Source: Burkholderiales bacterium
GTDB lineage: Bacteria; Pseudomonadota; Gammaproteobacteria; Burkholderiales; JAHFRG01
Direction of reading: 5' to 3'
Assembly (NCBI GenBank): GCA_035624615.1
Contig: DASPRE010000066.1
Coordinates: 16,555-80,554 of the forward strand
DNA length: 64,000 nt
A program made the position numbers and the translations under genes. Numbering within the stretch: the stretch's first letter is position 1; each line of letters starts with the position of its first letter. The notes under the pieces were generated by a model, which was not told where the DNA came from, searched no databases, and saw only the letters and a list, made by a program, of their open reading frames with translations. Shown piece after piece: positions 4,850 through 63,039 of this stretch.

Positions 4850-4879
4850 TTTGCAAGCCCAACTTCTGCTGTCGCTCGA

Positions 4880-5425: not shown

Positions 5426-5458
5426 ACGGTTTTCTAATTCTTCACGGGTTACCTCAGC

Positions 5459-47521: not shown

Positions 47522-47596
47522 GCGGGAATAGCTCAGTGGTAGAGCACAACCTTGCCAAGGTTGGGGTCGCGAGTTCGAGCCTCGTTTCCCGCTCCA
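47522..47596 (+). tRNA. tRNA-Gly (anticodon GCC)
   Basis: The cloverleaf was folded by hand. The acceptor is GCGGGAA/TTCCCGC, the anticodon loop is CTTGCCAAG, the T-loop is GTTCGAGC, and CCA is encoded. Confidence 0.9.
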
Positions 47597-47602
47597 ATTC
47601 CA

Positions 47603-47639
47603 GGGAAAACGAACAAAACTATCGAAATTTCGTTTTCCC
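47603..47639 (+). other. Perfect 11-bp inverted repeat hairpin in the tRNA-Gly/tRNA-Cys spacer
   Basis: GGGAAAACGAA (47603-47613) and TTCGTTTTCCC (47629-47639) are exact reverse complements with a 15-nt loop. They are followed by CTTTTCAATTTT. Confidence 0.6.
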
Positions 47640-47666
47640 TTTTCAATTTTGATGATAAATAAATAC

Positions 47667-47740
47667 GGCGGGGTGGCAGAGTGGTCATGCAGCGGCCTGC
47701 AAAGCCGTGGACGCCGGTTCGATTCCGACCCCCGCCTCCA
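47667..47740 (+). tRNA. tRNA-Cys (anticodon GCA)
   Basis: The acceptor is GGCGGGG/CCCCGCC, the anticodon loop is CCTGCAAAG, the T-loop is GGTTCGATTCC, and CCA is encoded. Confidence 0.9.
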
Positions 47741-47885
47741 GTACAATTGAAATTATCACGACCTGGATGGAGCAAGTGACAAGTCACCGCAAAAACTCCG
47801 AGCAGCGATAAAAAGCGGACGTATTCGCTTGCGTCATTCATCCCAATGGAATTCGCTTCCAGAGCTCTCGTAGAATCACATTTTT

Positions 47886-47976
47886 GCCCGGATGGTGGAA
47901 TTGGTAGACACAAGGGACTTAAAATCCCTCGGGCTCTAACCAGCCCGTGCCGGTTCGACTCCGGCTCCGGGCACCA
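47886..47976 (+). tRNA. tRNA-Leu (anticodon UAA), class II with long variable arm
   Basis: The acceptor is GCCCGGA/TCCGGGC. The anticodon stem-loop is AGGGA-CTTAAAA-TCCCT. The variable arm is GGGCT...AGCCC, the T-loop is GGTTCGACTCC, and CCA is encoded. Confidence 0.85.
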
Positions 47977-48095: not shown

Positions 48096-50543
48096 TTATG
48101 ACTTTGCCAGCCGTGACCTATAAACAAGCGCCGCAGGCAGCAGTAATACAGCGGTAAGCAGGCACATGATCTCTCCGAGTACCGCAACGATTCCAAAAGA
48201 GAAAAGAGCTTGATTCCTTGCGGCAAGCAAGGATCCGTAGCCGAGTATGGTAGTGAAGGAGCAGAGTGCTACTGCGCCACCGGTCTTGCTTACGATCGCA
48301 GCGACATCTGAGGGATTCTCGCGAAATCGCTGCAGCACATTGATGGCGTATTCGACACCAATGCCAAAAGTAATCGGAAACGCCATGAAGTTGAGAAAGT
48401 TGATGCGGATATCAAGCGCGATGACGGCTCCAGCGAGCAGTGTCACACCGGCCAGAAGTGCTGCCAGCACATTCAGTGCTTGACGGCGCACTCGAAAGAG
48501 CACTAACACGACAACAACTACGCCGGCAAACGAGGCCAAGGTGGTAGGTAACGCCTCACGATTGAGAGCTTCCAAAATCTCGGCAGACACGAAGAAGCCG
48601 CCCGCTATCTGCGCCGGTGGCTTCACGCTGTCCGCGATATTCCGCAACGCGGTTGCCGCGTGTATCGTCAGAGCCCCATCCCACGTGGATCCGTTTAGGC
48701 TCTGCAAAAGGATGGAGGTTCGCCCAAACCGCCCGTCCTTTTCCCGCAAACCCAGCGCCAATAGCTCGGGCAGGTCTGCAGCCGAGATCGCTGGCGCATC
48801 AGCGCTCGCCACCATGGACGCCAGTGGTGCCTTGGCATCGCCGGGAAGCGCCGCGCGCACTGCCGGAGTAAGAAGTTTCGCGATGGCCTGAAGTTCTTGG
48901 CGACGTTGTTCCTGATCTGGCGGCAGCATGTCGTCGGGGGTGATCACCAGCGATGTGATCGACAACAATGGCTCATGGCGCGCGTCCTGGCGCAGACGCG
49001 CCGCGATGAGCTGCGCATCTGCTTTAGTGTCGGACATAACAGCAACTGCTGTGAAATTGCGGCCCAACACCGCGTCCATTTTACGCGACCAGTAGGCTTC
49101 ACCATGTATCGCGGAGTCACGGCTACGCAACTTGCTCATGTCGTATTCGATGCGAGAGCTGTTAAATTGAGACGCAGCCAGCAACGATGCCAGCAGTGCA
49201 ACTCCGCCGGCCAAGAGAATCGCACGCGACCGGTATACGACCAGATGTTCAAGCCAATTGCCCAGGGCGGTTGCTAACCCGCGAGTTCGTTCGGGAACTT
49301 GGGAACGGCGATCAATCATGACAAGCATAATGGGCAGCAACAGATAAGTCGCGCACCAACAGGCCAACATACCCAATGAGCCGATAACAGCAAACTCGTT
49401 GAATCCGCGAAATGTCGTGGTCAGGAGCGATGCATAACCCACCGAGGCCGCCACCGTGGCCGCAAGTGTCGCTGACCACGTGCATCGCACGGCCATAATG
49501 ACCGCTTCTGTCGGCGTCGCGCCGCGGCGGCGTTCATCCGTATAGCGAGCGGTCAAAATGATGCCGGAATTAATGCCGTTGCCAGCAACGATGGATCCGA
49601 GGAATGCGGTGCTGCTGCAGAGTGACTTGACAAATAGGGAAGCAATACCAAAACCCCAGGACGTGCCGATTGCGAGCGGAAACGCAATGCACAGAAGCGC
49701 GCCCCACCACCTAAAGAACAGAACGACCGCGCCTGCTATCCCGAAGATTACCAGTACCGCTGAAACACCGATGTCCGATTTCAATGCAGAAAGTTCTTCT
49801 ACGGCGATGGCAACGTCTCCCGCATAGCCAACTTGTAGTCCTTGGGATTCCCGAGCTAGTGAGGCGACCTCCTTCTTGATGTGTTCAAACATCGGCCCGA
49901 TCGTTTCCACACCTGTATCTGCAGTGGCGAGAAACACCAGGACAATGGCCGTGCGACCATCGTTGGAAACGAGACGATCCGCGGGAAAACGACCGGCAAA
50001 AGGGTCCTGTTTCTTCACGCGGTCATGCAGAACCGAAAGGGCTGATTCAGTATTCACAGCGGTTTCAAGCGAAGGGAAAAGCAGTGACGCGCCACTTCGC
50101 TGGAACTCAACTAGATTTGCCATTTGCTCATTCAATTGGCGAAGATCTTTGAGCGGAATATAAAGTGGACCGTATTTACGTACGAATCGCCGCTCGGCGC
50201 TCACATCGGTACGAACGCTGAGAATGAGGTCGGGTCGTGTCGTCGCGTATGCGCGGATGCGGTCGCCCAACTCGGTCGCAAACGCTAGCGGCGGGCCACT
50301 GCTGGTGCCACTTATCACGATTCCCAGATGCTGAGAGCCTTCCATACGCTTGCGCAGCGTCTGGGCACCGCGAACCGCGGGCGAATCGGCCGGCAAGAGT
50401 GCTTCGAGATCAGACCTTAGGTTCGCGTACAGGCGCACGGCGGCGAGTCCAGCTGGAACTGCAGTTGCGAGGGCCAATCCGAGTACGGTGACGCGCAAGC
50501 GGCGGCTCGTCACGAGTTTTTGAATCCACACTGACGCTTTCAT
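48096..50543 (-). CDS. MMPL/RND-superfamily membrane exporter (HpnN-like lipid transporter)
   Basis: 815 aa from ATG 50543. It has two blocks of about 6 TM helices, each preceded by a large soluble loop, which is the MMPL/RND topology. Its ATG overlaps the upstream stop (ATGA). Confidence 0.75.
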   Translation of the reverse strand: MKASVWIQKLVTSRRLRVTVLGLALATAVPAGLAAVRLYANLRSDLEALLPADSPAVRGAQTLRKRMEGSQHLGIVISGTSSGPPLAFATELGDRIRAYATTRPDLILSVRTDVSAERRFVRKYGPLYIPLKDLRQLNEQMANLVEFQRSGASLLFPSLETAVNTESALSVLHDRVKKQDPFAGRFPADRLVSNDGRTAIVLVFLATADTGVETIGPMFEHIKKEVASLARESQGLQVGYAGDVAIAVEELSALKSDIGVSAVLVIFGIAGAVVLFFRWWGALLCIAFPLAIGTSWGFGIASLFVKSLCSSTAFLGSIVAGNGINSGIILTARYTDERRRGATPTEAVIMAVRCTWSATLAATVAASVGYASLLTTTFRGFNEFAVIGSLGMLACWCATYLLLPIMLVMIDRRSQVPERTRGLATALGNWLEHLVVYRSRAILLAGGVALLASLLAASQFNSSRIEYDMSKLRSRDSAIHGEAYWSRKMDAVLGRNFTAVAVMSDTKADAQLIAARLRQDARHEPLLSITSLVITPDDMLPPDQEQRRQELQAIAKLLTPAVRAALPGDAKAPLASMVASADAPAISAADLPELLALGLREKDGRFGRTSILLQSLNGSTWDGALTIHAATALRNIADSVKPPAQIAGGFFVSAEILEALNREALPTTLASFAGVVVVVLVLFRVRRQALNVLAALLAGVTLLAGAVIALDIRINFLNFMAFPITFGIGVEYAINVLQRFRENPSDVAAIVSKTGGAVALCSFTTILGYGSLLAARNQALFSFGIVAVLGEIMCLLTAVLLLPAALVYRSRLAKS

Positions 50544-51889
50544 GAGATGTAATCCATGAGGCGCATGGCGGCAGCCACCGCTCGAACCGCGAGCCCGTGT
50601 AGGGGCTTGCACGGCAGCTTGGGCAGATCGTCTCGGAACCACGCGAGTCCGCCTTCACCCGTGACCGCATCGCTGCGAGCCAGCCGGTCGCTAATCCAGC
50701 TGCCAGCGGCTACGCCCAATGCGAGACCGTGCCCGCACCATCCGATGGCGTGAAGAATATTTGGAGCTTCCGAACACCTGCCGATGGCCGGCAATCCGTC
50801 GAGGACATAGCCGATGGTGCCGCTCCAGCCATGCGAGACCCGGATGCCTTCGCGAGCCAAGTCTGGAAAAGTTGCGAAGAGAAGGTGCCGCAGGCCTTTT
50901 AACGTGCGCGCCGGAATTCGTTCCGCGCGCGCGTTTTCGACCGGGCAGAACCGTGGCGGACCTCCACCGAAAATGAGGCGATTATCGCTCGATAGCCGAA
51001 AGTAACTGAATATTCGACGCGCCTCCACTACGCCCTCCCGGCCGGCCCATCCAATGTTGGCCAGCAAGGTGGTGGGTATCGGCTCAGTAGCGAGCGCCTG
51101 CAATTGCAGCGCTATGATGCGACGACAAGGCCGCCCCAAATTGGGCGCGTAACCGGCGGTGGCAAGCACAGCCTGATCGGCAATCACCTTTCCGCCACCC
51201 ACTAGCGACAAGCATGCCTTGCCGTCGTCGGCACCACCGGTCAAAGCGCGCACCGGGCTGCATTCAAAAATGCGCGCACCACGAACTGTCGCTGCCCTGG
51301 CGAGTCCAGCCACCAGCTTTCCGGGATGCACGATCCCAGCAAGGGGCAGCCGAAGCGCCGCGGGCCCGTCAATTCCATTGCCCGGTCTAGGAGGCAACCG
51401 TATGTATTTCGCCAAGCGGTTGTCAAATAGCGACTCGACCAACAATCCGCGGGCGTTAAGCCAATCTGCCTGAGCGGATAGGCGGCGACGCCCGGCGGCG
51501 GAACGCGCCCAAAGAATCTGACCGGTAAGAGACAGGTCGCAATCGATATGTTCCGTTGCGATAAGATCGCCAACCATTTTGACGGCGCGCAGTGTGGCTC
51601 GATAGAGCGCCTCCGCACCGACATCGCCTAGCCGCTTGATCAATGCGAGCAGATCTTGGCCTACCCCGGGCCCCAACATACCGGTGTTGCGACCCGAGGC
51701 ACCAGAACCTACAGTCCCGGCCTCCAGCACTACCACGTGAAGAGTCGGATAACGTAACAGCAAGTGATAAGCGGTCGACAACCCGGTGACGCCGCCACCT
51801 ACAATCGCGACGTCGGCACGAATGGTTTCCTGCGGGAAACTCTCATACCGCACGCGCGAAATCTCGTTCCAAACAGGAGACTCAATCAT
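50540..51889 (-). CDS. FAD-dependent oxidoreductase, DAO (glycine/D-amino-acid/amine oxidase) family
   Basis: 449 aa. It has the N-terminal dinucleotide fold ADVAIVGGGVTGLSTAYHL...LEAGTVGSGASGRNTG and the C-terminal GHGLALG typical of the DAO family. Confidence 0.75.
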   Translation of the reverse strand: MIESPVWNEISRVRYESFPQETIRADVAIVGGGVTGLSTAYHLLLRYPTLHVVVLEAGTVGSGASGRNTGMLGPGVGQDLLALIKRLGDVGAEALYRATLRAVKMVGDLIATEHIDCDLSLTGQILWARSAAGRRRLSAQADWLNARGLLVESLFDNRLAKYIRLPPRPGNGIDGPAALRLPLAGIVHPGKLVAGLARAATVRGARIFECSPVRALTGGADDGKACLSLVGGGKVIADQAVLATAGYAPNLGRPCRRIIALQLQALATEPIPTTLLANIGWAGREGVVEARRIFSYFRLSSDNRLIFGGGPPRFCPVENARAERIPARTLKGLRHLLFATFPDLAREGIRVSHGWSGTIGYVLDGLPAIGRCSEAPNILHAIGWCGHGLALGVAAGSWISDRLARSDAVTGEGGLAWFRDDLPKLPCKPLHGLAVRAVAAAMRLMDYIS

Positions 51890-51977: not shown

Positions 51978-52913
51978 TCATCGCACCTTTATCCGTAGCG
52001 ACCGCGGAAGAAGTCTTAACTGGGCCGGCAGGCGGCCAACACTTTCGCCGTCAAGCTCCAGCAGCACCCGGGAAGGACTTGTGGCAGCCACTTGGCACGC
52101 TCGAAATAGTTGGGTGCCTGCTTCGTGAACATGAGCACCGTTGTATAAGGATCGTCGCTTGCTGATAAAATCCAGCACGCCGAAACCTGACCACAGTGTC
52201 ACATCGAATTTCCCATCATCGATCGAGGCATGCGGGGCGACATTTATGCCACCACCGAAATACTGGCCATTGCAAATCGCGCAGTTGGTAACTGAATATT
52301 CGTGTGCTGGTTCGTCGTTCAAAGCTACTGTGACGATTTGATCGTGGTAGACGAGCAAGCTCCGCACTGTCGCCAGAGTAAAAGCTAATGAGCCGCTGGC
52401 GCGCTTGAGCGTCGGAGTGACCACGCGGGCGACTTGTCCGCTGCAGCCAAATGAAGCAACGTTGAGAAAGACTCTCTCCACGGTCTTTCCGTTGTGATCG
52501 ATGTAACTGGCGTGTCCCACATCAATGGATCTGTTCTCGCGACCACCTAGTCGTGCACACGCCTCGTGGAGGCTGGATGCGCCGAGGGTCCTGGCAAAGT
52601 CGGAACCCGTGCCCTGTGCGACAATTCCCAGAACCGCAGCCGGTGCTACTGCGCGACCATCCTGAAAGAAGCCGCACACGACCTCGTTTAAGGTTCCGTC
52701 CCCGCCAACCGCCACAATCATCTCAAAGCCGTCTTGAAGTGCCCGGTTGGCTAAACTCGTCGCGTGTAATGGTCCTGCGGTAAAGGCGTGCTCGAAAGGG
52801 CCAATCGCGTCGCCAATCAATGAACCTATTTGTCCCCAACGTCGGCCGGTGGCGCCGCCGGCAGAGGCCGGATTGACGATGACCATCGCGCGCAGTCTGT
52901 CCCCGTTGGACAT
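51978..52913 (-). CDS. Diacylglycerol-kinase-family lipid kinase (YegS/BmrU/sphingosine-kinase-like; same family as VlmJ)
   Basis: 311 aa. It has the DAGK catalytic domain (AMVIVNPASAGG..., IVAVGGDGTLNEV, LGIVAQGTGSDFAR). Confidence 0.8.
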   Translation of the reverse strand: MSNGDRLRAMVIVNPASAGGATGRRWGQIGSLIGDAIGPFEHAFTAGPLHATSLANRALQDGFEMIVAVGGDGTLNEVVCGFFQDGRAVAPAAVLGIVAQGTGSDFARTLGASSLHEACARLGGRENRSIDVGHASYIDHNGKTVERVFLNVASFGCSGQVARVVTPTLKRASGSLAFTLATVRSLLVYHDQIVTVALNDEPAHEYSVTNCAICNGQYFGGGINVAPHASIDDGKFDVTLWSGFGVLDFISKRRSLYNGAHVHEAGTQLFRACQVAATSPSRVLLELDGESVGRLPAQLRLLPRSLRIKVR

Positions 52914-52919
52914 CGCAAC

Positions 52920-54011
52920 TTATAAGGACCGAGTCAGGAATAGAAGATCAAAGACGGCGCGCACCGATAAAGGATTAGCGGCCAGGTATTCGCGCTCAAT
53001 AATGTCCGGTGTCCACTTGAGCTTATAGTGTGCTTGGCTCGCCGCCGGATAGATGGCAGCCCCATACCGGTACAGGAGGGGCACTGCCCAGGCGGCCAAG
53101 CGGTTCGCACCCGGAAACTCAGGGCCTCCTACGACAAATGGCGTGAAGCCAAAATGCAGATACGGCGCACCCTCAGAGATCATGACCTCGATCGCCCGTG
53201 CATTACAAAGTTCCAGGGCACCGGGCGGAGCGGAGGGTAGCCGCCGACTTAGGTCATGCAGGTAACCCGGTGCGCGCCCCCAGGAGGGAACGTAGGTGAT
53301 GAAGGCCACGCACCGGTCAGTCGGATCAATGGCTGCAAAAATCCGCCGACGCGCGTCTTCTGGCGGACCGATCTCGCCAATCATGAAATCAAGTTCCTTC
53401 TTGTTCTTGGCCTTGAGCCACTCCGCACTTACTTCATGCAGCTCGCCGAACGTCATTTCGTTGCGAGGCCAATCCACGCCAAACTCAACGGCCCTCAGGC
53501 CAGATGCCCGGGCACGACTGATTTTGTTGCGCAACTGCATTTTCCTTGTGCCGCGGAGCGTGAAGTTTCTCAGTGAAAGGCCAAAACTAGTGCCGACCTG
53601 GTTGATCGAGAATCCGCGATCGCTAAACAGCTGCACCTGCTCAGCACGCAACTGAACAACCAGCACGCGCCGCCGGCGGCTGGACGCAAAGGCGAGTAAA
53701 TGGTCAAGCAAAACGCCCCGCTGTGATTGGGGCGCCTGGACTCCACCCAGGGCAATCACATGTCGCCCCTGTTCCCTAAAGGAAATGAATCCGCTGATTC
53801 CCGGTACTGTGAAATGTTGATTCCTCGAAGAAAGCGTAAGAAAGCCGGATGGATGATCAATCAGATCCTCCATGGATTCCTCGCGTCGGGGCAAAATCAT
53901 ATTACTGGTCGCGAGCGCCACATCCTGCTCCTTGGTGGTGATGAATGGCCGAGCATGCGTTCTGAAAGGCTGTGGATAGGTGGCCGGACGGGACTTTTGG
54001 GTCGTCAGCAT
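52920..54011 (-). CDS. Standalone MprF C-terminal-type domain protein (DUF2156/LPG_synthase_C; aminoacyl-tRNA-dependent transferase fold; same family as VlmA)
   Basis: It aligns by eye with the S. aureus MprF C-domain, recalled from memory. The aligned segments are NFTLRGTRKMQLRNKISRARASG, VSAEWLKAKNKKELDFMIG, HDLSRRLPSAPPGALE and HYKLKWTPD..REYLA. There are no TM/flippase segments. ATG 53873, preceded by GAGGAA, is an alternative start. Confidence 0.8.
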   Translation of the reverse strand: MLTTQKSRPATYPQPFRTHARPFITTKEQDVALATSNMILPRREESMEDLIDHPSGFLTLSSRNQHFTVPGISGFISFREQGRHVIALGGVQAPQSQRGVLLDHLLAFASSRRRRVLVVQLRAEQVQLFSDRGFSINQVGTSFGLSLRNFTLRGTRKMQLRNKISRARASGLRAVEFGVDWPRNEMTFGELHEVSAEWLKAKNKKELDFMIGEIGPPEDARRRIFAAIDPTDRCVAFITYVPSWGRAPGYLHDLSRRLPSAPPGALELCNARAIEVMISEGAPYLHFGFTPFVVGGPEFPGANRLAAWAVPLLYRYGAAIYPAASQAHYKLKWTPDIIEREYLAANPLSVRAVFDLLFLTRSL

Positions 54012-54065: not shown

Positions 54066-55130
54066 TCAGCGCCCAACTGCACCAACATTAAGTGCCTGCG
54101 CCAATGCCGGCGTTCGACGCACGCGCCAGATTCTGGCGTCAACTAGGTAGTGGTGAAACGCGACCCCCCAACACAGGCCAAGCACAACGTTACGGGCCGT
54201 TTCATTAGTCAGGGCGACCGCGGCAGGGACTCGTAGCCCATACCAAACGAGGCCAAGCAGTAATCCGCCCGCAAGGTAAGGGACGAGGCCACCCAAGGGG
54301 CGGCGGCCGCGACCCGCTTCGTACTGCCAAACGATGCGATGGTATTGGAGGTTGTGGAAAATGGTGAGCGTGGCGAGGATAGTGAGCAAATGAGAGAGCA
54401 GAGCGAATACCAGCACGTGAAACACGATCACAATGGTCAGCAGCAAGTGTTTTGGCCCAGGACGGAACTGCCCGTATCGGCCAGTAACTGCAAGCAACAC
54501 GGCCGCTCCCATTAACAAGCAGAACGCCACATCCAAAATGAATGCTAATTGGGGCAGAAGAGCAACGGGGACGAGTTGCGGCAGCCCACTGTGAAGGTAT
54601 GCTTCGCTAAGAGAAAAGCGCAAAAACGGATAAAGGCAGCCGACCCAAAGAATAAAGGAATCGAGCAATTGGCCGCGCCGATTATTTTCGCCGGCTCGCC
54701 TGCGATAAAGCACGAGAAAACCGTAATGCTGCCTCACTAGATGCCAGTAGGCCCATAGGTAGGCAGCGAGGAGAAAATAGCTGAATAGTGCCCCCCGCAG
54801 CTGTAGCGCTGCATCGGCGACTGCGAGAGCCGGGCCAAGCGCGAAGATCAGCCACCACCGGGGCTTGGGAATTCCGGCTCTGGAATTCGTGTCGGGAGCG
54901 AGATAGCTGCGCGCATAAGTGGCCCAAACGTGCGTGCCATCGAACAGCACCCCCCATAAAAAGACGACAAGAATGACCGGATCGCTCGGGGAAAGCTGCG
55001 CACTATCGGGAAAGGGAGCGGCAGCAAAAAAGGCCAGCAGAATAATCCCGGCAATGACCGAGCCCTGAAACCAGAGCAAGTCATCGCGCCGCGAAATTAT
55101 CCATGGCGAGGAAGGGTCATTGCTAACCAT
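54066..55130 (-). CDS. Polytopic membrane protein of unknown function with four conserved-looking His/Trp motifs
   Basis: 354 aa from ATG 55130, with an 8-nt overlap onto the upstream gene. It has about 8-9 hydrophobic segments. The motifs are FDGTHVWATY, WHLVRQHYGF, FHNLQYHRIVW and FHHYLVDARIWR. Confidence 0.6.
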   Translation of the reverse strand: MVSNDPSSPWIISRRDDLLWFQGSVIAGIILLAFFAAAPFPDSAQLSPSDPVILVVFLWGVLFDGTHVWATYARSYLAPDTNSRAGIPKPRWWLIFALGPALAVADAALQLRGALFSYFLLAAYLWAYWHLVRQHYGFLVLYRRRAGENNRRGQLLDSFILWVGCLYPFLRFSLSEAYLHSGLPQLVPVALLPQLAFILDVAFCLLMGAAVLLAVTGRYGQFRPGPKHLLLTIVIVFHVLVFALLSHLLTILATLTIFHNLQYHRIVWQYEAGRGRRPLGGLVPYLAGGLLLGLVWYGLRVPAAVALTNETARNVVLGLCWGVAFHHYLVDARIWRVRRTPALAQALNVGAVGR

Positions 55131-56340
55131 ATTGAGGCTCCGGACTAGTTGCAAAGGAGGACCAAATCCGATCTTGAACGAAGGACCCCAGCGGTGACGA
55201 AGCGAACGCAAAGGCGCAGCGATGCAAGGCATTGCCGACCGGGCCGCCAAGGGCAAATAGCAGACTCATCCAGTGCGAATTGCGGATAATTGCGGCATTG
55301 TGAGGGCGTCGTTCCCGTTCGTAGGCGGCAAAGCAGGAGTCGATTTCGGCGGTCGTGGCGTTGTTCTGGAGGGCAATGCCCAGATGGCGGGCAATCGATG
55401 CAGCGTCCTCTATCGCCATCGTCATTCCCTGCGCCATTACTGGGTTGATGACGTGCACTGCGTCGCCGAGCAGCACTGCGCCGTGCGCCGAATAGCTCGG
55501 CGCATGTGCGCGCCACAGCTTGTACAGATGAGCCCCTTCGGCAACCGGGCGGCGGTCGGCTAGCAGAGGGGAGCGATGCTCGATGTGCGAGTATTTCTTG
55601 TCTATTGAACCGGAACGAAACAAGTATTCATGCTCCGAGCGAATTATCGCCGCGAGACCGAGACGGTTGACACCCGGAACGACCAACACGCCGCCATCGG
55701 GATGCAATTCAGTGCGCAGTACATCGGGCATGCCGACGGGCCGGTCGATGTCCACAATGAATAAACTGTGGTTATAGGGAGCGCGGCGAACTTCGATCCC
55801 TAGTCCTTCCCGGACGATTGACTTCGCGCCGTCGGCGCCAATTACCACCCGGCAGCTCAGCTCCTGCTCGTTTCCGTCGCTTCCCTTAATCAAGACGCCT
55901 TGGACACGACCGTCTTCTTTGATCAGCGACAACACCCGCGTGCCGTAGCGGACTTCAACTCGCCCAGTTGCTATTGCCGACTCGACAAAAGCGCGCTCGA
56001 CTTTGGGGTGTGGCAGCACGAGATACGGATCGGCGACGTTGGGCAAAGCCAGTGGAACATTCAGCACCAGGCCATCGCGATAATGGAAAAATTGCATCGT
56101 GTTTATCGGGCGAGCCCCCGCCGTGTAACATCGGTCCAATGCACCCCATCCCCTAAGAAGCGCGGTCACTGGGGGAAGCAGGCTTTCACCGCGGTTGATA
56201 TTGCCTGCGCCCGGATGCCGTTCGATGAGCAGCACGCGAAGTGCGCGGTCGTGCACAAGAGCCAAGGCGCAGGCCGTGCCCCCGACTCCGGCTCCGACAA
56301 TGATGACATCGTAATCGAACTGCTGAACGGCGCTGCTCAT
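55123..56340 (-). CDS. FAD-dependent monooxygenase (group A flavoprotein hydroxylase, UbiH/PF01494-like)
   Basis: 405 aa from ATG 56340. It shows YDVIIVGAGVGGTACALAL, a central DG motif region and GDAVHVINPVMAQGMTMAIEDA. Confidence 0.8.
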   Translation of the reverse strand: MSSAVQQFDYDVIIVGAGVGGTACALALVHDRALRVLLIERHPGAGNINRGESLLPPVTALLRGWGALDRCYTAGARPINTMQFFHYRDGLVLNVPLALPNVADPYLVLPHPKVERAFVESAIATGRVEVRYGTRVLSLIKEDGRVQGVLIKGSDGNEQELSCRVVIGADGAKSIVREGLGIEVRRAPYNHSLFIVDIDRPVGMPDVLRTELHPDGGVLVVPGVNRLGLAAIIRSEHEYLFRSGSIDKKYSHIEHRSPLLADRRPVAEGAHLYKLWRAHAPSYSAHGAVLLGDAVHVINPVMAQGMTMAIEDAASIARHLGIALQNNATTAEIDSCFAAYERERRPHNAAIIRNSHWMSLLFALGGPVGNALHRCAFAFASSPLGSFVQDRIWSSFATSPEPQYG

Positions 56341-56350
56341 TGGTCGTCTC

Positions 56351-56764
56351 CTATCGCTCTGGTCGCTTATTGGGTTCGAAGGGCAGCGGCCAGGGTTTCG
56401 AAAAATTGCCCAGCAAACCGCGATCGCCAGACAGGTGAATCGGCACTGCGACCATTGCCCATTCCGGGCCTCCGGAGGCCAGCATCCAGAGTGCGACGAT
56501 GGCGCCCTCGACAACGTAGCTATGGGTTAGGTTGTAGAGCAGATGATAGATGCGCGGGATCCGTTGGCCCCCGGAACTGCGAAACGCCACTGCCCCTGGC
56601 AAATAGCCGACTAAATCGATAAGTAAAAATGCGGCGATAAACCGGCTCCAGGAGATATCCTCAAAATGCGCGACCGCCAGGGACGTGAAAATTGCGACTA
56701 TGGCAACGTGTTCGGCGCGCATCCACCATGAAGCGCCTCGATCCGGGACAAATGCTGTGCTCAT
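56351..56764 (-). CDS. DUF4260-like small membrane protein
   Basis: 137 aa with 3-4 hydrophobic segments. It shows IDLVGYLPG, YNLTHSY and IHLSGDRGLLGN, which resemble the DUF4260 pattern. Confidence 0.45.
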   Translation of the reverse strand: MSTAFVPDRGASWWMRAEHVAIVAIFTSLAVAHFEDISWSRFIAAFLLIDLVGYLPGAVAFRSSGGQRIPRIYHLLYNLTHSYVVEGAIVALWMLASGGPEWAMVAVPIHLSGDRGLLGNFSKPWPLPFEPNKRPER

Positions 56765-56773
56765 TGCTGCTCC

Positions 56774-59254
56774 TCAGGCCGCATCCATGACAAGCGTCGG
56801 GTCTTGGTCGGGCGAATAGTCGCGCGTAGGCCGTGGTGAAGCGAGATGGAAACCGTGGCGGCTGGCGAGCGTGAGTATGTGATCCACTTCTGCCAACGAC
56901 ACGTTGTAGCCGACACCAAAATCACGGGTTTCTCCCGCCAGAGCCAACAGAATTGTTTCCGCCAGGCAGGCGAGCGTGACGCCGGGAGGCAAGTTGTTGA
57001 GATTTCCGACTCCGAACTTGATATTGGGATCTGGCAACGCGACCTGTCCGCCATCAAAAACGAAGAGATCATGTCGGGCGCGAGTTGCCGCGGACGTGTC
57101 AGGCGGCTTGGCCACGTCGCAGATGATTGTGCCTGGCGCGAGCGATGCGGCTTCGAGCGCCGGCCGAGCAGCAGCTGTGGCCGTCAAAATGATTTGGCAG
57201 TCTTTGAGTACCGAAGTGTCGTTAGCAATTTCAACTGCGGGAAGTTTGATTCTTAGTTCATTGGCCAAGGTTTGCAGTGCTATCACTGTTCGACTCGGGT
57301 TGCCTACCAGCACCAGGCGCCCGAGTTGCTCGCGCGCAAGCAAGCGCGCACAAAGGCTGCCAACCGAGCCGCGAGCCCCAACCACAGCGACGCAAGTTTG
57401 GCTCAGCCGCAAACGCCGAGCTTTCGCTGCGGCCAATATTGCTTTTACCGCCATTCCCGCGGTAAGCGCATTGCCGGTCGTAATTGCGGGTCCACGTCCG
57501 CAGGCTGAAAGCCCGCGCCGGCTATAGGGGGCGGTATGCCCGCCGAGACCGACGATGCGTGCCCCCAGGCTTGCTGCCAGATCGACCGCCCTGTTGATTT
57601 CCTGTGCGGTTCGGCGCAGGCCTCGCGACGCCATTTCCTCAGGCAGGATTGGCAGAGCCAAGATGAGTCCGTCGACGCTCTCGCCAGTAGCCGAAAAGAT
57701 AGTTGGCGCACGCATGACCACTCCCGGAGCGAATGCGCTGGTGTAGGCGCATACGCGCCGCAGAGCCTCATCATTGAAACCGCGAAGCGATGGGTTGGTC
57801 ACTTCGATATCCTCAGGACGAGTGTAGTGCCCCAACCACGCGTACTGCGGTTTCGGTGCGTCTTTGGGTAAGCGTGTGAGCAATAGCGGGGCGGGGCCCG
57901 GATATTCGGTGTCAACTACGGAGGGATAGCCATCAAACGCGCCGATTGCCCGCAGGATGGTGCCGGTCGTGTCCTGCTGAAGCGCACGGAAAACTCCATC
58001 GATCATCTCGAGTGCCATCTCCAGTTCTTGCTGCGAGATGATGAGGGGAGGTGTTATCCGAATCACGTCGGAATTCCCAAGAGTTGGAAGGACCAGGACA
58101 GAGCCTAATTCGGCGACCGTTGCCGCCACTGCATAGCTGTATAAACCCTGATTCGCGAGAAACGACAGAAATGTGCCCTGTTCTTCGCCAGGGGAGCGTA
58201 ACTCGATAGCGCTCATTAGCCCGCGACCGCGCACGGCAGCAATAAACTTCGGATAACGAGCGGCCATCTGATTGAGATAGTCCAACAGAATTTTGCCCCT
58301 GCGTTCGACGTCTGCGCAAAACCCGTCGTTCGTCAGTATTTCCAGTACCTTCAAACCGACTCGGCAGGCAACATTATTGTTGGCGAACGTGGAGGAGTGC
58401 AGGAGCGAAAACTGTTCATCCGAGAACGCGAGCGAGCTGAAACAGCCGCTGAGTGGGAATAGACCGCCGCCAAGCGCTTTGCCGAGCAACAGTACGTCTG
58501 GCTCGATCCCATCGTGTTCGCAGGCAAAAAGTCGCCCAGTCCTGCCGAGTCCTGTTTGAATTTCATCCAGGACCAGCGCTACGCCGTACTGTGAACACAA
58601 ATTGCGGACTCGCTTGAGATAACCAGGTGGTGGAAGATGAACGCCGCGTTCTCCCTGAATGGGCTCAATGAAAAAAGCGGCAATCTTGTCCCCGTCGTGG
58701 CTCAATCGATCCTGGAGCGCATCGGCATCGCCGAACTCAAGGAATTCAACGCCCGATGGCGATGGACCAAATGGGTCGGCATATTGCCGCTGCCCGGTAA
58801 GTGCGAGAGCTCCCATGGTCTTGCCATGAAAGGACCCTCTTGCAGCCAGAATGATGGACCGCCCGGCCCGCCTACGGACCAGCTTGATCGCCGCCTCAAC
58901 GGCTTCCGCCCCCGAAGTTGTGAATATGCCACGGGACAAATTTCCCGGAGCCAGTTCGCCAAGCCTGCGGGCAAGTGCTTCAGCGTGACGGGCACGATAT
59001 GGCTGAATCATGGCTGGTTCGCCACTGTCCAGCGCGGTTCGCGCTGTGTCTATTATTTGGGGTGCATTGTGTCCAAAGGCCAGCACTCCGTATTGGGCAT
59101 AGCAATCCAGGAAATGCCTGCCGTCTGCGTCGATCAACCAGACTCCATCGGCGTGCTCCCATATACGGTCCATTCGTAGCAGCGCGAACAGCCTGCGAAG
59201 TGTGGGATTCAGTCGACTGTGGCTTTTGGACTCACTTTGTACTCGTTCAAGCAC
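56774..59254 (-). CDS. Fusion protein: class-III (PLP) aminotransferase N-terminal domain plus acyl-ACP-reductase (AAR)-like NAD(P)-dependent C-terminal domain
   Basis: The N-terminal half shows GHNAPQ, LVLDEIQTGLGRTGRLFACEH and LLLGKALGGG (PLP Lys). The C-terminal half aligns end to end with cyanobacterial AAR (ITTGNALTA, VAVVGARGSVGS, LACLAETIL with the catalytic Cys, ASRHGF). The start is placed at GTG 59254, preceded by GAGG. The ORF-track ATG 59380 adds 42 Arg/Ser/Thr-rich residues. Confidence 0.8.
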   Translation of the reverse strand: MLERVQSESKSHSRLNPTLRRLFALLRMDRIWEHADGVWLIDADGRHFLDCYAQYGVLAFGHNAPQIIDTARTALDSGEPAMIQPYRARHAEALARRLGELAPGNLSRGIFTTSGAEAVEAAIKLVRRRAGRSIILAARGSFHGKTMGALALTGQRQYADPFGPSPSGVEFLEFGDADALQDRLSHDGDKIAAFFIEPIQGERGVHLPPPGYLKRVRNLCSQYGVALVLDEIQTGLGRTGRLFACEHDGIEPDVLLLGKALGGGLFPLSGCFSSLAFSDEQFSLLHSSTFANNNVACRVGLKVLEILTNDGFCADVERRGKILLDYLNQMAARYPKFIAAVRGRGLMSAIELRSPGEEQGTFLSFLANQGLYSYAVAATVAELGSVLVLPTLGNSDVIRITPPLIISQQELEMALEMIDGVFRALQQDTTGTILRAIGAFDGYPSVVDTEYPGPAPLLLTRLPKDAPKPQYAWLGHYTRPEDIEVTNPSLRGFNDEALRRVCAYTSAFAPGVVMRAPTIFSATGESVDGLILALPILPEEMASRGLRRTAQEINRAVDLAASLGARIVGLGGHTAPYSRRGLSACGRGPAITTGNALTAGMAVKAILAAAKARRLRLSQTCVAVVGARGSVGSLCARLLAREQLGRLVLVGNPSRTVIALQTLANELRIKLPAVEIANDTSVLKDCQIILTATAAARPALEAASLAPGTIICDVAKPPDTSAATRARHDLFVFDGGQVALPDPNIKFGVGNLNNLPPGVTLACLAETILLALAGETRDFGVGYNVSLAEVDHILTLASRHGFHLASPRPTRDYSPDQDPTLVMDAA

Positions 59255-59709
59255 GATAGCTCGCCTCGTTGACCTCGTTTCGGTCGATCGTGGTCGACTT
59301 CTACAGAAGAGTTCCGGTCCAAAAATGTGCAGACGTGCAGATGTGCTTTTTTCGGATACGGCCGCTGGCCGGCAGAGCAAAAGGGCGCGCGCGAAAGTTA
59401 TAGAGTTCAGAACGGAACTGAGCCGTTACCATCAGCCGCAAGCAAATGAATGCGGTTTGTAAAGAATATAAAAACATGCTCCTCCTGATATTGTGGCTTT
59501 TCTGCCGCCAGCGGTTGCGCTGGGTTTGGCCATTACTCTGTCGCATGGCGCATTACGGATGGGTAACGATTCGGTAACAGATTGCTTACTTGTTTACCAC
59601 CGCTGCTTGTAAGCGATTTGTAACCGATACGTTAGCGATTGGTAAGTCACGGTTTGGTACCGTGTTTATCGGCAATAAGACAGCCATTTGCACTAAATGC
59701 AAATTCAAT

Positions 59710-61047
59710 ATGACTTTTAGCGCAATTCGAATTCGAAACACGGTCGAGCTACTGGAGTACATAACCGTGAGTGCCGGCATGATGTTCGGGGCTTCCTGTT
59801 TTTTGGTCCTTGGATTCATCGCCGGATCCAACTCTATCCGCGACATAGTCTTGGCAATCGTCATTGCGGCGACTCTATGTCTATCTGTTGCTTATGCCGT
59901 TGGCGAAATGGCCAGCCGCTTTCCTTCGGCGCCCGGCATTCGCACCTACATTAAATGCGCATTCGGGGACGAGGCCAGCCTCTTTTTTACTTACCTATCG
60001 TTATTGGTCACTATTCTTTTTGCGGGCATCGAGATGAAGGTGTTTTGGGACGCCTTGTGGCCGGGAACTTCACCGCATGCGCACGCAGTAGCGACGTTCG
60101 CGATGATTGGCGTATTGGCTTATCTGAATATCACCGGGCGCGAGCTGCCGCGCCTGATTCAGGTGCTTTTTTGCTCGGCGCTTGTGACAGCGACCATTGC
60201 GGTATCCTGGGTTACCATGACGAGAATTGACACGACGCTTGGCTACGTGCCAATTGGTCCGCAAGCATCGTTGATATCTGCGATCGGCATATCTTTCTTT
60301 GTTTTTATTGGTTTCGAATGGGTCACGCCGATTGCCAAGTCGCCGGAAGCGTCGCGACAGCTAATCCCAGTAAGCATGATTATTGCAATTGCAACACTGG
60401 CGATAACCTACCTGCTTTTTGCGATGGCTCTGAATTTGGCCTTGCCACATGCCGACTTGCTGCAGTCCAAGGCGCCTCATATATTGCTAGGCGCGTGGCT
60501 GTTTCCGGCTCACGGATTGCTGATGATGCAGTGCCTGTCCGTTCTGGCATTGGTAACTATTTTAAACGCTGGAGTCATTGGGGCTTCCCGCCTGCTTTAT
60601 TTCTTAGCTCGAGACCGATCATTCTTTGGGTGGTTAAATGAGCGCTTGTCGATCCTTAATTCCAAAGGTGTTTCGTCCGCCAGCGTCGCGCTGCTGTGCG
60701 GTCTTTGCTTGCTGTCTTGCCTATTGGAGATTTATCTGGACGCTGCCCAGATCATTGCTCAGGTATGTGCTGGCCTCTACTGCCTGGTCTACTGCGCGTT
60801 TCTTGCGTCACACATCCGGCTGCGCAGACAACCCGTGGATAGGGCTTTGTTTCGCAGCCCATTGCCGATCAGCCTTTATTATGTATTAGCGGCTTTCCTG
60901 TTAATGCTTGGCATTGCGACGTTTCTTGGTTCAGTGAATCAAATTCCAATTAGGCTTCCGTGGCTCGCCCTGATAGTCTTTCTGTCCGGTGCCGCAGCTA
61001 TTCGCGTCGCCAAGTCACGGCGCATCGCAGCATATCGAAGGACCTGA
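59710..61047 (+). CDS. APC-superfamily amino acid/polyamine permease
   Basis: 445 aa from ATG 59710. It has about 12 TM segments. The N-terminal MFGASCFLVLG, GEMASRFPSAPG and FIGFEW are typical of APC permeases. Confidence 0.8.
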   Translation: MTFSAIRIRNTVELLEYITVSAGMMFGASCFLVLGFIAGSNSIRDIVLAIVIAATLCLSVAYAVGEMASRFPSAPGIRTYIKCAFGDEASLFFTYLSLLVTILFAGIEMKVFWDALWPGTSPHAHAVATFAMIGVLAYLNITGRELPRLIQVLFCSALVTATIAVSWVTMTRIDTTLGYVPIGPQASLISAIGISFFVFIGFEWVTPIAKSPEASRQLIPVSMIIAIATLAITYLLFAMALNLALPHADLLQSKAPHILLGAWLFPAHGLLMMQCLSVLALVTILNAGVIGASRLLYFLARDRSFFGWLNERLSILNSKGVSSASVALLCGLCLLSCLLEIYLDAAQIIAQVCAGLYCLVYCAFLASHIRLRRQPVDRALFRSPLPISLYYVLAAFLLMLGIATFLGSVNQIPIRLPWLALIVFLSGAAAIRVAKSRRIAAYRRT

Positions 61048-61059
61048 TGAGGCATCACC

Positions 61060-61428
61060 ATGTCAGCACGATCATCAGCGCCGTCATTGTCAGAAACACT
61101 TGAGAAATTTCGCTCGACGGTAAACGGCGATTCTCGCTTGACGAATATTTTGCGAGGTTGGGAGCCAGTGATCATGATCGAGGTACCCAACGCAGGGTGG
61201 AGGCGATATCTTCCCGTTCACGAATGTCGCATTGCCGAGATTACATCGGATTTCAAAGACGCTTCGCATATTGTCCGATTGCGATCTTCCGAGGAAACAT
61301 TAATTGCGATCTTTGACGGTCGATACAACCCGGTGGAGGCTTTTTTTAACGGAGAATTAGAATTATTTGCGACCGACAATGACCAAGTTAAGCTTGACGC
61401 CATCAGCCTAGTGCTGTGGGGCACATAG
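61060..61428 (+). CDS. SCP2 sterol/lipid-binding domain protein
   Basis: 122 aa. The C-terminal pattern LIAIFDGRYNPVEAFFNGELELFATDNDQVKLDAI matches the SCP2 signature (..G.l.p..Af..Gkl...Gd...a.kl). Confidence 0.65.
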   Translation: MSARSSAPSLSETLEKFRSTVNGDSRLTNILRGWEPVIMIEVPNAGWRRYLPVHECRIAEITSDFKDASHIVRLRSSEETLIAIFDGRYNPVEAFFNGELELFATDNDQVKLDAISLVLWGT

Positions 61429-61442
61429 ATCCTATCTTACCA

Positions 61443-62408
61443 ATGAATCCGGAACCCATTATGAACTCCAGCAATTCAGACCGGCAGCTCGACGCCGAGG
61501 CCGTGCCCAGTCGAGAGACACCGACATATAGCGTTCAAAATTGGGCCAATGGCAGGTGGGATATTCAGCAGTGGCTCGAACGGACCGCATGGCGAACGTT
61601 GAAGGATACAGAATATGGGCGTCCGAGGGTAGAGAATGGCATCTTACCCGAGCTATTCAGCGACGGGCTGCTGCGACAGGTTTATTTGATCGATATCGCT
61701 ACGTTCATCGAAGCGGAGCGGACATCGTTTGAGGCAGTTGCCGGTCTGCTGCGCTGTGCTCCGGATGAGAACAGTAAAATTTATCTCGGTACCCAAGTGA
61801 TGGACGAGTGCCGGCATTTTGAGGTCTTTTGCCGCCGCATGGCTGATTTTGGTATTTCTCCCGAACTGCGCAACACGCTTGTCAGACGTTATGCGACTCC
61901 CGCGATCAGGAAGTTTTACGACTTGGTGCTCGAGCAGGTGGATAAACGGGATTTTATTGCAGGTTGCCTGGCGCAGAACATTGTGATGGAAGGCATGTCC
62001 TACCCGGTCTATCGATATGAGATCAAGTACTGGTCGAGGATCGACCCCTCTTTAAGTCGGATCATTCGTGGTGCTTTTGCCGATGAAGTGCACCATGTTT
62101 CCTATGGAGAAGCAATCATCAAGGATCATATAAAAGGACTCGATCCAGCCAAGAAATCAAGGCTGCAGGCTCTAATAAGGGAATTTTCAGGACTGATGAC
62201 GGAAGCGTTCGAGCAGGTGATCAGTCACTATATCGGCTTGTACCAGGAATGTGCGAACCAGCATATGTCGCTGATGGGCAATGTAGAAATTTTTCCGGGA
62301 AAACTCATGTCTTCGGTATCGGAGGAAGATCAGGCACGTCTGCTCCTCAGGGAGATAACGCGCGAGCATGCTCAGCGCGCAGCCCGAATTGGACTTTCCC
62401 CAATCTGA
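61443..62408 (+). CDS. Ferritin-like non-heme diiron protein (oxygenase/oxidase type)
   Basis: Two E...ExxH pairs have canonical spacing (ORF-track numbering): E99/E101, E131-C-R-H134, E192, E224-V-H-H227. The start is ambiguous (GTG 61416, ATG 61443 or ATG 61461). Confidence 0.6.
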   Translation: MNPEPIMNSSNSDRQLDAEAVPSRETPTYSVQNWANGRWDIQQWLERTAWRTLKDTEYGRPRVENGILPELFSDGLLRQVYLIDIATFIEAERTSFEAVAGLLRCAPDENSKIYLGTQVMDECRHFEVFCRRMADFGISPELRNTLVRRYATPAIRKFYDLVLEQVDKRDFIAGCLAQNIVMEGMSYPVYRYEIKYWSRIDPSLSRIIRGAFADEVHHVSYGEAIIKDHIKGLDPAKKSRLQALIREFSGLMTEAFEQVISHYIGLYQECANQHMSLMGNVEIFPGKLMSSVSEEDQARLLLREITREHAQRAARIGLSPI

Positions 62409-62481
62409 TCCCGCCAGAGGTGAAGACGTGGTAGAACAACTCCTTTGCCAGGGCTAGTGGAGTAACTACCTAGAGGGCGCC

Positions 62482-63039
62482 ATGGGAAAATTCCTTTTGT
62501 TGATGCTTTTGTGGCTGCCAGCCTGTCTGCTGTTCCTGGCCTTCTACGAGTACGTGGCTCACCGATGGCCTCTGCACGAGCTGAATCGGCATACGTGGCG
62601 CCTCGAATTCGTATCGGACCACAAGGTGCATCACCGCCTCTACGCCCATCGGTTCCAGGGCGACGAGGTGCCGGCCTGGTATGACGCCCTGCACGTACGC
62701 GGCCTGATCGCGTTGCTTTGGTCGGGCCTTCTCATGGTGCCGGTCTATGCCTGGTGGTCGAGGCCGCTAGCCGTTACATTCGTGCTGTCAGCGGTCGCGC
62801 ACGGAATTTTCTTGCAGTGGATCCACGTGCAGATGCACCAGCCGAGCTGCGCCTGGCTTACGGCGACCCGCTATTACCGCTTCGTCCGGGACTTCCACAC
62901 GGCTCATCACCGGCAGGCGCGAAGCAACTACGGCTTCGTGTTCGCGCCGCACTTCGACCGACTTTTCGGCACAGAGGCAAGGAATCGCGTCGTGGACTCC
63001 GTCAGTTCGCCGCCAGTCCGATGCGGCGGCCGCGAATAG
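62482..63039 (+). CDS. Fatty acid hydroxylase/sterol desaturase-superfamily membrane protein (CrtZ-sized)
   Basis: 185 aa and membrane-embedded. It has His boxes HRWPLHE, HKVHHRLY, HVQMHQ and HTAHHRQ, which is the HxxxxH/HxxHH pattern of the superfamily. Confidence 0.7.
   Translation: MGKFLLLMLLWLPACLLFLAFYEYVAHRWPLHELNRHTWRLEFVSDHKVHHRLYAHRFQGDEVPAWYDALHVRGLIALLWSGLLMVPVYAWWSRPLAVTFVLSAVAHGIFLQWIHVQMHQPSCAWLTATRYYRFVRDFHTAHHRQARSNYGFVFAPHFDRLFGTEARNRVVDSVSSPPVRCGGRE

Follow-up and report, generated by a model that had tools for sequence, protein, structure and literature searches.

A diiron oxygenase of the VlmB superfamily in a predicted N–N bond-forming gene cluster outside the actinobacteria, probably acting at a different step

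The 64,000-nt stretch of Burkholderiales DNA analysed here (contig DASPRE010000066.1, positions 16,555 to 80,554; "the window") encodes on its plus strand a ferritin-like diiron protein, which we designate core B. A preliminary description, made from the sequence letters alone, placed its gene in the middle of a three-gene "tailoring operon", between genes for an SCP2 lipid carrier and a membrane enzyme with histidine boxes. The three open reading frames (ORFs) are present at 61060-61428 (122 aa), 61416-62408 (330 aa from a GTG) and 62482-63039 (185 aa), and the many database homologues of each show it to be a real gene. Those of the diiron protein number 221, the top one exhibiting 90% identity and coming from a Burkholderiales metagenome-assembled genome (MAG). 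The 122-aa protein is 100% identical to VEG37_07400 of a "MAG TPA Burkholderiales bacterium". Residues of the diiron protein are numbered here from the GTG at 61416, from which the ORF is open; the start used by its homologues is the ATG at 61461 (315 aa), and the ATG at 61443 is an alternative. A permease gene on the same strand stops 12 nt ahead of the SCP2 gene, so that the plus-strand operon comprises four genes, not three. A promoter and terminator scan of the region 59.2-63.4 kb gave no signal exceeding shuffle expectation. Eight tightly packed genes run divergently on the minus strand, from 59380 down to 48096. The three genes initially described lie at the end of a ~15-kb cluster that most likely leads from fatty acid to fatty amine and on to an N–N bond.

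An alignment of 32 sequences, including a Streptomyces "VlmB-like" protein, reveals six invariant residues expected to bind the diiron centre: E101, E131, H134, E192, E224 and H227. The same six ligands are kept across all clades of the VlmB superfamily. The ligand set first proposed included all of these and E99 in addition. E99 varies among the aligned sequences; the first ligand is therefore E101, and the spacing is 30/61/32. The AlphaFold2 (AF2) model is an all-helical bundle with a predicted local distance difference test score (pLDDT) of 89.8 and a predicted TM-score (pTM) of 0.87. Two ExxH motifs and two further glutamates on a four-helix core are all found in core B, in agreement with the ferritin-like carboxylate-bridged scaffold that had been predicted. 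When compared with the scaffolds named at that time, VlmB proves to be by far the closest solved relative. The VlmB structures 6d9f and 8wvr are the top phmmer match in the PDB (E-value = 3.5e-23), and Foldseek gives a TM-score of 0.79 for 8wvr ("azoxy synthase VlmB with substrate") versus 0.57-0.64 for R2lox and the aldehyde-deformylating oxygenases (ADO).

No Pfam or NCBIfam model scores above its cut-off against the diiron protein. The matches, all sub-threshold, are to AurF (PF11583, 26.5 bits for a cut-off of 29.6), RNR-R2 (23.8 for 33.6), ADO (PF11266, 21.6 for 28; TIGR04059, 20.7 for 222.65), MiaE_2 and R2lox. Assignment to one of these families was abandoned, as such scores do not separate VlmB orthologues from core B. 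The superfamily is small, with 473 representatives at 50% clustering (E-value ≤ 1e-3) and 29 at E-value ≤ 1e-30. On sequence and modelled fold, the diiron protein is assigned to the VlmB superfamily as a predicted O2-activating ferritin-like oxygenase, within an orthologous group of its own.

The composition of the gene neighbourhood was followed in 35 loci from Burkholderiales, Gammaproteobacteria and Myxococcota, obtained by scanning species-representative genomes with the diiron protein. These loci carry up to 10 kb of flank around the core B gene. In high-GC loci ORF picking took some antisense ORFs (L026-L033, L010), and the tblastn and phmmer tables are preferred there. By tblastn, the diiron gene is accompanied by a gene for a TamH-like enzyme, predicted to form a fatty amine, in 32 of the 35 loci (with more than 80% of the query covered in 28), by an SCP2 gene in 32 and by a permease gene in 31. 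In ORF clustering of the same loci, these families span 34, 22 and 32 loci, respectively. The TamH-like enzyme, SCP2, permease and core B constitute a core module, and of the plus-strand genes only the His-box gene is accessory. The picture of a tailoring operon gives way to one in which SCP2, permease and core B belong with an amine-forming enzyme found in 32-34 of the 35 loci.

Two of these loci, L010 and L036, both from Burkholderiales MAGs, contain a second paralogue that we call B2 (4250-5452 and 4563-5534, respectively), upstream of the TamH-like gene and within the same operon as a core B gene. B2 exhibits 46-47% identity to the characterised K. setae VlmB. The corresponding value is 26% for the window protein and 23-30% for core B proteins overall, and the core B proteins of L010 and L036 are 61% and 58% identical to that of the window. 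The motifs flanking the ligands differ as well, core B having EGMAYP and AF(A/T)DE where VlmB orthologues have EG(V/A)LAPA and (I/M)DE(V/I)RH. Since B2 is nearer to VlmB and coexists with core B, and since the flanking motifs differ, core B is not the VlmB orthologue, even though VlmB is its nearest relative and VlmO- and VlmA-like genes occur in the window. The window itself contains no VlmB orthologue and a single VlmB-superfamily gene. The idea that core B might just be VlmB in an azoxy cluster of a Gram-negative bacterium was dropped as the lead reading after B2 had been found beside it.

The minus-strand genes, which the preliminary description overlooked, point to N–N bond chemistry. In the pathways characterised so far, VlmH and VlmR N-hydroxylate the amine and VlmA (PF09924) performs a tRNA-dependent O-aminoacylation (PMC11705231, PMC9379638, bioRxiv 10.1101/2023.10.13.562208). 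The DUF4260-like protein VlmO forms the N–N bond, its residues D51, H82, H110 and D114 being essential (PMC11705231), and VlmB converts the hydrazine to an azoxy group (PMC11705231, PMC9379638, bioRxiv 10.1101/2023.10.13.562208). The VlmJ family corresponds to PF19279 (PMC9379638), and azodyrecin is completed by the fatty-acid desaturase AzdT/Ady9 (PMC11705231, PMC9379638, bioRxiv 10.1101/2023.10.13.562208).

For comparison we used L003, an annotated Streptomyces plasmid locus with DUF2156, ACAD, small-membrane, flavin-reductase and "VlmB-like" genes. The 137-aa VlmO-like protein of the window is 50% identical (E-value = 3e-43) to the counterpart located between the VlmH- and VlmR-type genes of this locus. 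Its residues D50, H81, H110 and D114, invariant among nine homologues, correspond to the four essential metal residues of VlmO. The VlmA-like protein exhibits 41% identity (E-value = 1e-76) to the DUF2156 protein of L003, and the diiron protein 30% identity (E-value = 3e-32) to its "VlmB-like" protein. No match to VlmH or VlmR was found in the window, nor was PF03972 (the VlmK dehydratase) found among the scanned cluster genes; in both respects the cluster differs from valanimycin-type azoxy biosynthetic gene clusters.

The AAR-like domain noticed earlier lies in the 868-aa product of the first minus-strand gene, in which an N-terminal class-III aminotransferase (Aminotran_3, E-value = 1e-93; NCBIfam PigE, 533 bits) is fused to an NAD-binding C-terminal domain. 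PtTamH, a transaminase–thioester reductase fusion, converts acyl-ACP to a fatty amine (PMC9594044). We liken the window protein to this enzyme of tambjamine YP1 synthesis by its architecture, including the fusion itself, the GxxGxxG motif and the PigE-family aminotransferase domain. Unlike the PtTamH system, the window cluster lacks both tambjamine/MBC genes and a gene for a TamA-like ANL-ACP. Because VlmO-, VlmA- and VlmJ-like genes occur together with a TamH-like gene, the cluster is best understood as a fatty-amine-based, N–N-forming pathway in a betaproteobacterium.

The two other plus-strand proteins of the preliminary description agree with what had been said of them. The 122-aa protein matches the Pfam SCP2 model only marginally (20.5 bits for a cut-off of 21.3). 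A profile of 18 orthologues nevertheless matches SCP2 structures (1c44, E-value = 4e-4), and the top 35 Foldseek matches of its AF2 model (pLDDT 79) are all SCP2 domains, UbiJ included; the protein thus belongs to the SCP2 fold. UbiJ is the SCP2 protein of the ubiquinone hydroxylase metabolon, where it presents a lipid to soluble hydroxylases of the flavin and diiron types. The likeness of the window protein to UbiJ lies in the model, with no orthology at the sequence level.

The 185-aa protein is a member of the FA_hydroxylase (sterol desaturase/CrtZ) superfamily, with 47.3 bits for PF04116 (cut-off 31) and ten invariant histidines in four boxes (H27x4H32, H47xxH50H51, H115x3H119 and H139xxH142H143). 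This pattern is shared with 13 homologues, 241-321 aa in length, encoded at related loci. Its gene is present in L039, a close relative of the window cluster, and missing from L046, which marks it as accessory; a PF04116 gene is found in 16 of the 35 genome loci, besides the window and L039. A parallel can be drawn with the desaturase by which azodyrecin is completed. The two enzymes are not orthologues at the sequence level, AzdT being a PF00487 desaturase and the window enzyme a PF04116 hydroxylase type, accessory among close relatives. PF00487 desaturases occur in about 10 of the 35 loci, as do MMPL/DUF1302 exporters. The features of the cluster are collected in Table 1.

Table 1. Predicted genes of the cluster in the window, with the evidence for each assignment (FAD, flavin adenine dinucleotide)
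Feature	Position	Strand	Evidence
MMPL/RND-type exporter, last gene of the minus-strand operon	48096-50642	-	PF03176, E-value = 4.5e-25
DAO-family FAD oxidoreductase	50540-51889	-	PF01266, E-value = 2e-58
YegS/DAGK-type lipid kinase, VlmJ type	51978-52913	-	PF19279 and PF00781
VlmA-like aminoacyl-tRNA-dependent transferase, LPG_synthase_C/DUF2156	52920-54011	-	PF09924, E-value = 8.5e-48
His/Asp-rich polytopic membrane protein, 354 aa	54066-55130	-	no Pfam/NCBIfam family
Class-A FAD monooxygenase, UbiH-like	55123-56340	-	PF01494, E-value = 8e-40
VlmO-like small membrane protein, DUF4260-like, 137 aa, predicted N–N-forming hydrazine synthase	56351-56764	-	
TamH-like fusion, N-terminal class-III aminotransferase and C-terminal AAR-type thioester reductase, 868 aa, predicted fatty-amine synthase	56774-59380	-	
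APC-superfamily "amino acid permease"-like membrane protein, first gene of the plus-strand operon	59590-61047	+	PF13520, E-value = 4e-24
SCP2-fold small lipid-binding protein	61060-61428	+	marginal Pfam match, orthologue profile, AF2/Foldseek
Core B, ferritin-like diiron oxygenase, VlmB-superfamily paralogue	61461-62408	+	invariant ligands, PDB phmmer, AF2/Foldseek
Membrane His-box enzyme, FA_hydroxylase/sterol-desaturase superfamily, 185 aa	62482-63039	+	PF04116, 47.3 bits

The 354-aa membrane protein gives access to a second set of loci. It has 376 homologues, and the 120 listed are all at least 57% identical to it. The few whose source is named come from MAGs of Burkholderiales, Gemmataceae, Acidobacteriota, Thermoanaerobaculia, Methylomirabilota and Deltaproteobacteria. 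Its invariant residues include D64, H67, H130, H135, H228, H259, H326, H327 and D331, and its gene is syntenic with the VlmO, VlmA and DAO genes. The protein is a candidate for a new membrane metallo-oxidase of N–N pathways.

Anchored on this protein, we collected 81 metagenome loci, many of which are related and many truncated. A VlmA-like gene is present in 52 of them and a DAO gene (≥100 bits) in 56. A B-type gene occurs in 29, every one of which also has a VlmO-like gene, and a VlmH-like ACAD gene in seven (254-319 bits to the Streptomyces VlmH). The B-type and VlmH-like genes are never found together in these 81 loci, and none of the loci contains a VlmB orthologue. The aminotransferase–thioester reductase fusion (ATR) goes with B only (15 versus 0 loci); the VlmH-type loci with an aminotransferase in range (six of the seven, plus L078) have a short stand-alone form instead.

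The gene order in B-type loci is ATR, SCP2, permease, B, VlmO, VlmA, optionally kinase and FAD monooxygenase, then membrane protein and DAO. In VlmH-type loci it is VlmO, VlmA, membrane protein, DAO, in some cases a reductase, then aminotransferase, in some cases SRPBCC, and VlmH. The two modules map one-to-one: ATR to reductase plus aminotransferase, SCP2 to the SRPBCC lipid binder, and B to VlmH. The B of the soil type, 285 aa long in L042 ("B285"), has the motifs EGMAYP and AF[AT]DE in common with core B. L042 exhibits the order ATR, SCP2, permease, B, VlmO, membrane protein, DAO, VlmA, radical SAM and CDP-alcohol transferase. The FAD monooxygenase is found in B-type loci and also alongside VlmH-like genes in L076, L077 and L082; it is thus no substitute for the N-hydroxylase, and the notion that it N-hydroxylates the amine, leaving B as an azoxy synthase, is weakened accordingly.

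Among the genome loci, L010 encodes B2, an aminotransferase (TA), a thioester reductase (TR), SCP2, permease, core B, VlmO, VlmA, an RND pump and regulators. A flavin monooxygenase gene is absent within ±10 kb, which by elimination leaves core B as the candidate N-hydroxylase of this locus, and B2 as the candidate azoxy synthase. Since L010 has no other oxygenase left for the step, and since B replaces VlmH across loci, we propose that core B is a fatty-amine N-hydroxylase, an assignment that comparative genomics leaves evenly poised. Core B would then occupy the slot of the flavin-dependent alkylamine N-hydroxylases VlmH/VlmR and AzdH/AzdR, in which the amine is N-hydroxylated ahead of VlmA and VlmO. 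VlmH is an ACAD-fold flavoenzyme with no homology to the diiron protein.

The predicted reaction, N-oxygenation of an amine, is also that of the arylamine N-oxygenases AurF and CmlI, with which core B has its superfamily in common and of which AurF is its best, sub-threshold Pfam match. Core B differs from these in remaining under the Pfam cut-off and in a substrate presumed to be aliphatic. AurF and CmlI possess an extra, seventh histidine ligand four residues before the second ExxH, and core B has at this position an alanine, A220, invariant in the 32-sequence alignment. With the azoxy synthases VlmB/AzdB/Ady8 of valanimycin and azodyrecin, core B shares the ferritin-like fold, the six ligands, DExRH motifs and the proximity of VlmO/VlmA-type genes, although across the core B clade VlmO is present in only 7 of the 35 genome loci. 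Apart from low identity, separate orthology and its own flanking motifs, core B is distinguished from them by its tie to the TamH-like/SCP2/permease set, by the exclusion of VlmH and by the predicted substrate, an amine rather than a hydrazine.

A pathway can be outlined on these grounds. By homology to characterised TamH, the TamH-like enzyme would form a fatty amine in two steps, reduction of a fatty acyl thioester to its aldehyde followed by transamination. The hydrophobic amine may be held and presented by the SCP2 protein, as its fold suggests, and would then be N-hydroxylated by core B, replacing the Streptomyces flavoenzyme VlmH/AzdH; this step is suggested by comparative genomics only. 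Given its 41% identity to the Streptomyces protein, the VlmA-like enzyme would O-aminoacylate the hydroxylamine from an aminoacyl-tRNA. The VlmO-like protein, with 50% identity and conserved catalytic residues, would rearrange the product to an N–N bonded hydrazine. More speculatively, the His-rich membrane protein, the DAO protein and/or the FAD monooxygenase might convert the hydrazine to an azo, azoxy or hydrazone compound, the VlmJ-like kinase might act on the amino-acid (Ser-derived) side chain, and the His-box enzyme might hydroxylate or desaturate the alkyl chain, as AzdT/Ady9 does. Export by the MMPL protein is equally speculative. The predicted product is a long-chain alkyl hydrazine or azoxy, lipid-like metabolite.

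As a whole, we advance only tentatively the scheme in which the core B N-hydroxylase, SCP2 and the TamH-like enzyme feed a VlmA/VlmO cascade in several phyla, the membrane protein and DAO replace VlmB, and hydrazine or azoxy lipids are exported by MMPL proteins. According to the MAG names of homologues, the groups concerned are Burkholderiales, Acidobacteriota, Planctomycetota, Methylomirabilota and Myxococcota, that is, soil and freshwater bacteria.

Several observations weigh against an N-hydroxylase function of core B. The sole characterised relative, VlmB, oxidises a hydrazine rather than an amine, and the seventh histidine of AurF and CmlI is not present in core B. The window has no VlmB orthologue, so that an azoxy group, if made, requires core B itself or another enzyme. 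No reductase partner gene is found in the window cluster. The mutual exclusion of B and VlmH over all 81 loci reaches only p = 0.04 (Fisher, one-sided), among loci that are often related or truncated, and what is exchanged is a whole module and not one gene. Finally, 28 of the 35 core B loci lack both VlmO and VlmA within their flanks of up to 10 kb. Both genes are found in L009, L010 and L036 only (as well as in the window and L039), and VlmO alone in L004 and L005.

The first two of these observations are at the same time arguments for core B being an azoxy synthase like VlmB/AzdB, acting on the alkyl-hydrazino acid made by VlmO to form first an azo and then an azoxy group. N-hydroxylation of the amine would then fall to the DAO protein or to the UbiH-like FAD monooxygenase. 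An azdB mutant builds up hydrazine or azo intermediates. VlmB is the closest relative in sequence and solved structure with all six ligands kept, the window has VlmO- and VlmA-like genes together with only one VlmB-superfamily gene, and a VlmO-like gene accompanies B in all 29 soil B-type loci. In L009 and L041 the order is B, VlmO, VlmA, with the FAD monooxygenase gene divergent. We nevertheless consider this alternative, the main rival of the N-hydroxylase proposal, unlikely, though worth keeping in view. A true VlmB orthologue (47% identity) stands beside core B in L010 and L036, and the ligand-flanking motifs of core B are unlike those of VlmB orthologues. VlmH-type loci possess VlmO, VlmA, the membrane protein and DAO, yet no B. 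The FAD monooxygenase also accompanies VlmH-like genes, and VlmO and VlmA are both missing from the flanks of the 28 proteobacterial and myxobacterial core B loci mentioned above.

Alternatively, core B might act on carbon, as a soluble diiron desaturase or hydroxylase (compare acyl-ACP desaturase, MiaE and Coq7) of an SCP2-bound fatty amine or aldehyde. Its constant pairing with a lipid carrier would fit such a role, as would the sub-threshold Pfam matches to RNR-R2, MiaE_2, PaaA and Phenol_Hydrox, and in type I loci core B adjoins Fer2/FNR reductases and membrane desaturases. We judge this improbable: it leaves the exclusion with the N-hydroxylase VlmH unexplained and L010 without an N-hydroxylase, and one to three His-box membrane enzymes of the desaturase or hydroxylase kind are already encoded in the clusters.

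The preliminary description had also raised the possibility of an alkane-forming pair as in cyanobacterial AAR/ADO, in which core B would deformylate an aldehyde supplied by the AAR domain; despite the common fold (TM-scores of 0.57-0.58 to ADO), the weak ADO matches, the fact that an AAR-type reductase domain is encoded next to a ferritin-like diiron protein, the lipid handling and the title of 6d9f (an entry for VlmB itself), this is very improbable, because core B stays far below the ADO cut-offs and fits VlmB much better (0.79 versus 0.57), the neighbouring VlmO and VlmA genes indicate nitrogen chemistry, and the reductase, wherever in range, always comes with an aminotransferase (mostly fused to it, as in the window; L010, L011 and L036 have the two on neighbouring ORFs), so that the aldehyde is committed to the amine.

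The K. setae protein has been deposited twice, as "Protein 60 with aldehyde deformylating oxidase activity" (6d9f) and as "azoxy synthase VlmB" (8wvr), and some homologues of the diiron protein are already annotated as "long-chain fatty aldehyde decarbonylase". In-vitro promiscuity of the VlmB family could be misleading annotation here.

The genome loci without VlmO and VlmA (L016, L018, L020, L024, L028, L030 and others) belong to Undibacterium, Pseudoalteromonas, Cellvibrio, Massilia and Trinickia. They carry genes for ThiF-rhodanese, ThiS-like (with a C-terminal GG), AlkB-like desaturase, Fer2/FNR reductase and PF10118 hydrolase proteins, which hints at a different fatty-amine product, possibly containing sulfur.

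Among the minus-strand genes, the longest ORFs of the FAD monooxygenase (55123-56514) and of the membrane protein (54066-55256) overlap the genes upstream by ~160 and ~130 nt, respectively. The orthologues (405 aa for the FAD monooxygenase in L039, and 354 aa) point to internal starts, probably at ~56340 for the former and near 55130 for the latter. The remaining overlaps of only ~8-12 nt suggest translational coupling along the minus-strand operon. MMPL genes like that at the end of this operon turn up again in related loci.

The minus-strand proteins of the window (ATR, VlmO, membrane protein, VlmA and DAO) share 47-61% identity with their L042 counterparts, and B just 35%; the permease and SCP2 proteins of the window gave no tblastn match in L042 (E-value ≤ 1e-3). 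The high identity on the minus strand and the low identity of B indicate a mosaic, with a minus-strand operon of the soil type and a plus-strand operon of the proteobacterial core type. Genes for tRNA-Gly, tRNA-Cys and tRNA-Leu lie directly to the left of the cluster (47522-47976, plus strand), and housekeeping genes flank the block. The G+C content is 0.56-0.60 in the minus-strand part (48-58 kb) versus 0.50-0.54 across most of the window, and the right-hand flanking genes differ in the close relative L039. The tRNA genes, the raised G+C content and the different flank suggest a horizontally acquired island. A further copy of the cluster lies on a 75-kb contig that also bears the VEG37 locus-tag prefix; its B is 90% identical and its membrane protein 88%. 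Either the cluster is duplicated or one bin contains two strains.

Within the papers reachable, descriptions and genome mining of aliphatic azoxy and hydrazine biosynthesis are confined to actinobacteria (PMC9379638, PMC11705231, bioRxiv 2023.10.13.562208), and in the same literature we found no paper on non-actinobacterial azoxy or VlmA/VlmO clusters. The window now places the VlmA/VlmO core in a genome of the Burkholderiales, and its relatives place it in many lineages from soil metagenomes. The front end joined to it here (TamH-like fusion, SCP2, permease and diiron protein) is different, and so is the back end (His-rich membrane protein, DAO and FAD monooxygenase). Isolate genomes with a related core module are those of Massilia, Undibacterium, Pseudoalteromonas, Trinickia and Ampullimonas. 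If core B is indeed an N-hydroxylase, the N-oxygenation of aliphatic amines would be added to the reactions of the VlmB family. It would also provide a flavin-independent route to alkyl hydroxylamines, usable in biocatalysis with TamH-type enzymes, and would point to N–N bonded lipids of an undescribed class, in Gram-negative bacteria and in other phyla outside the actinobacteria.

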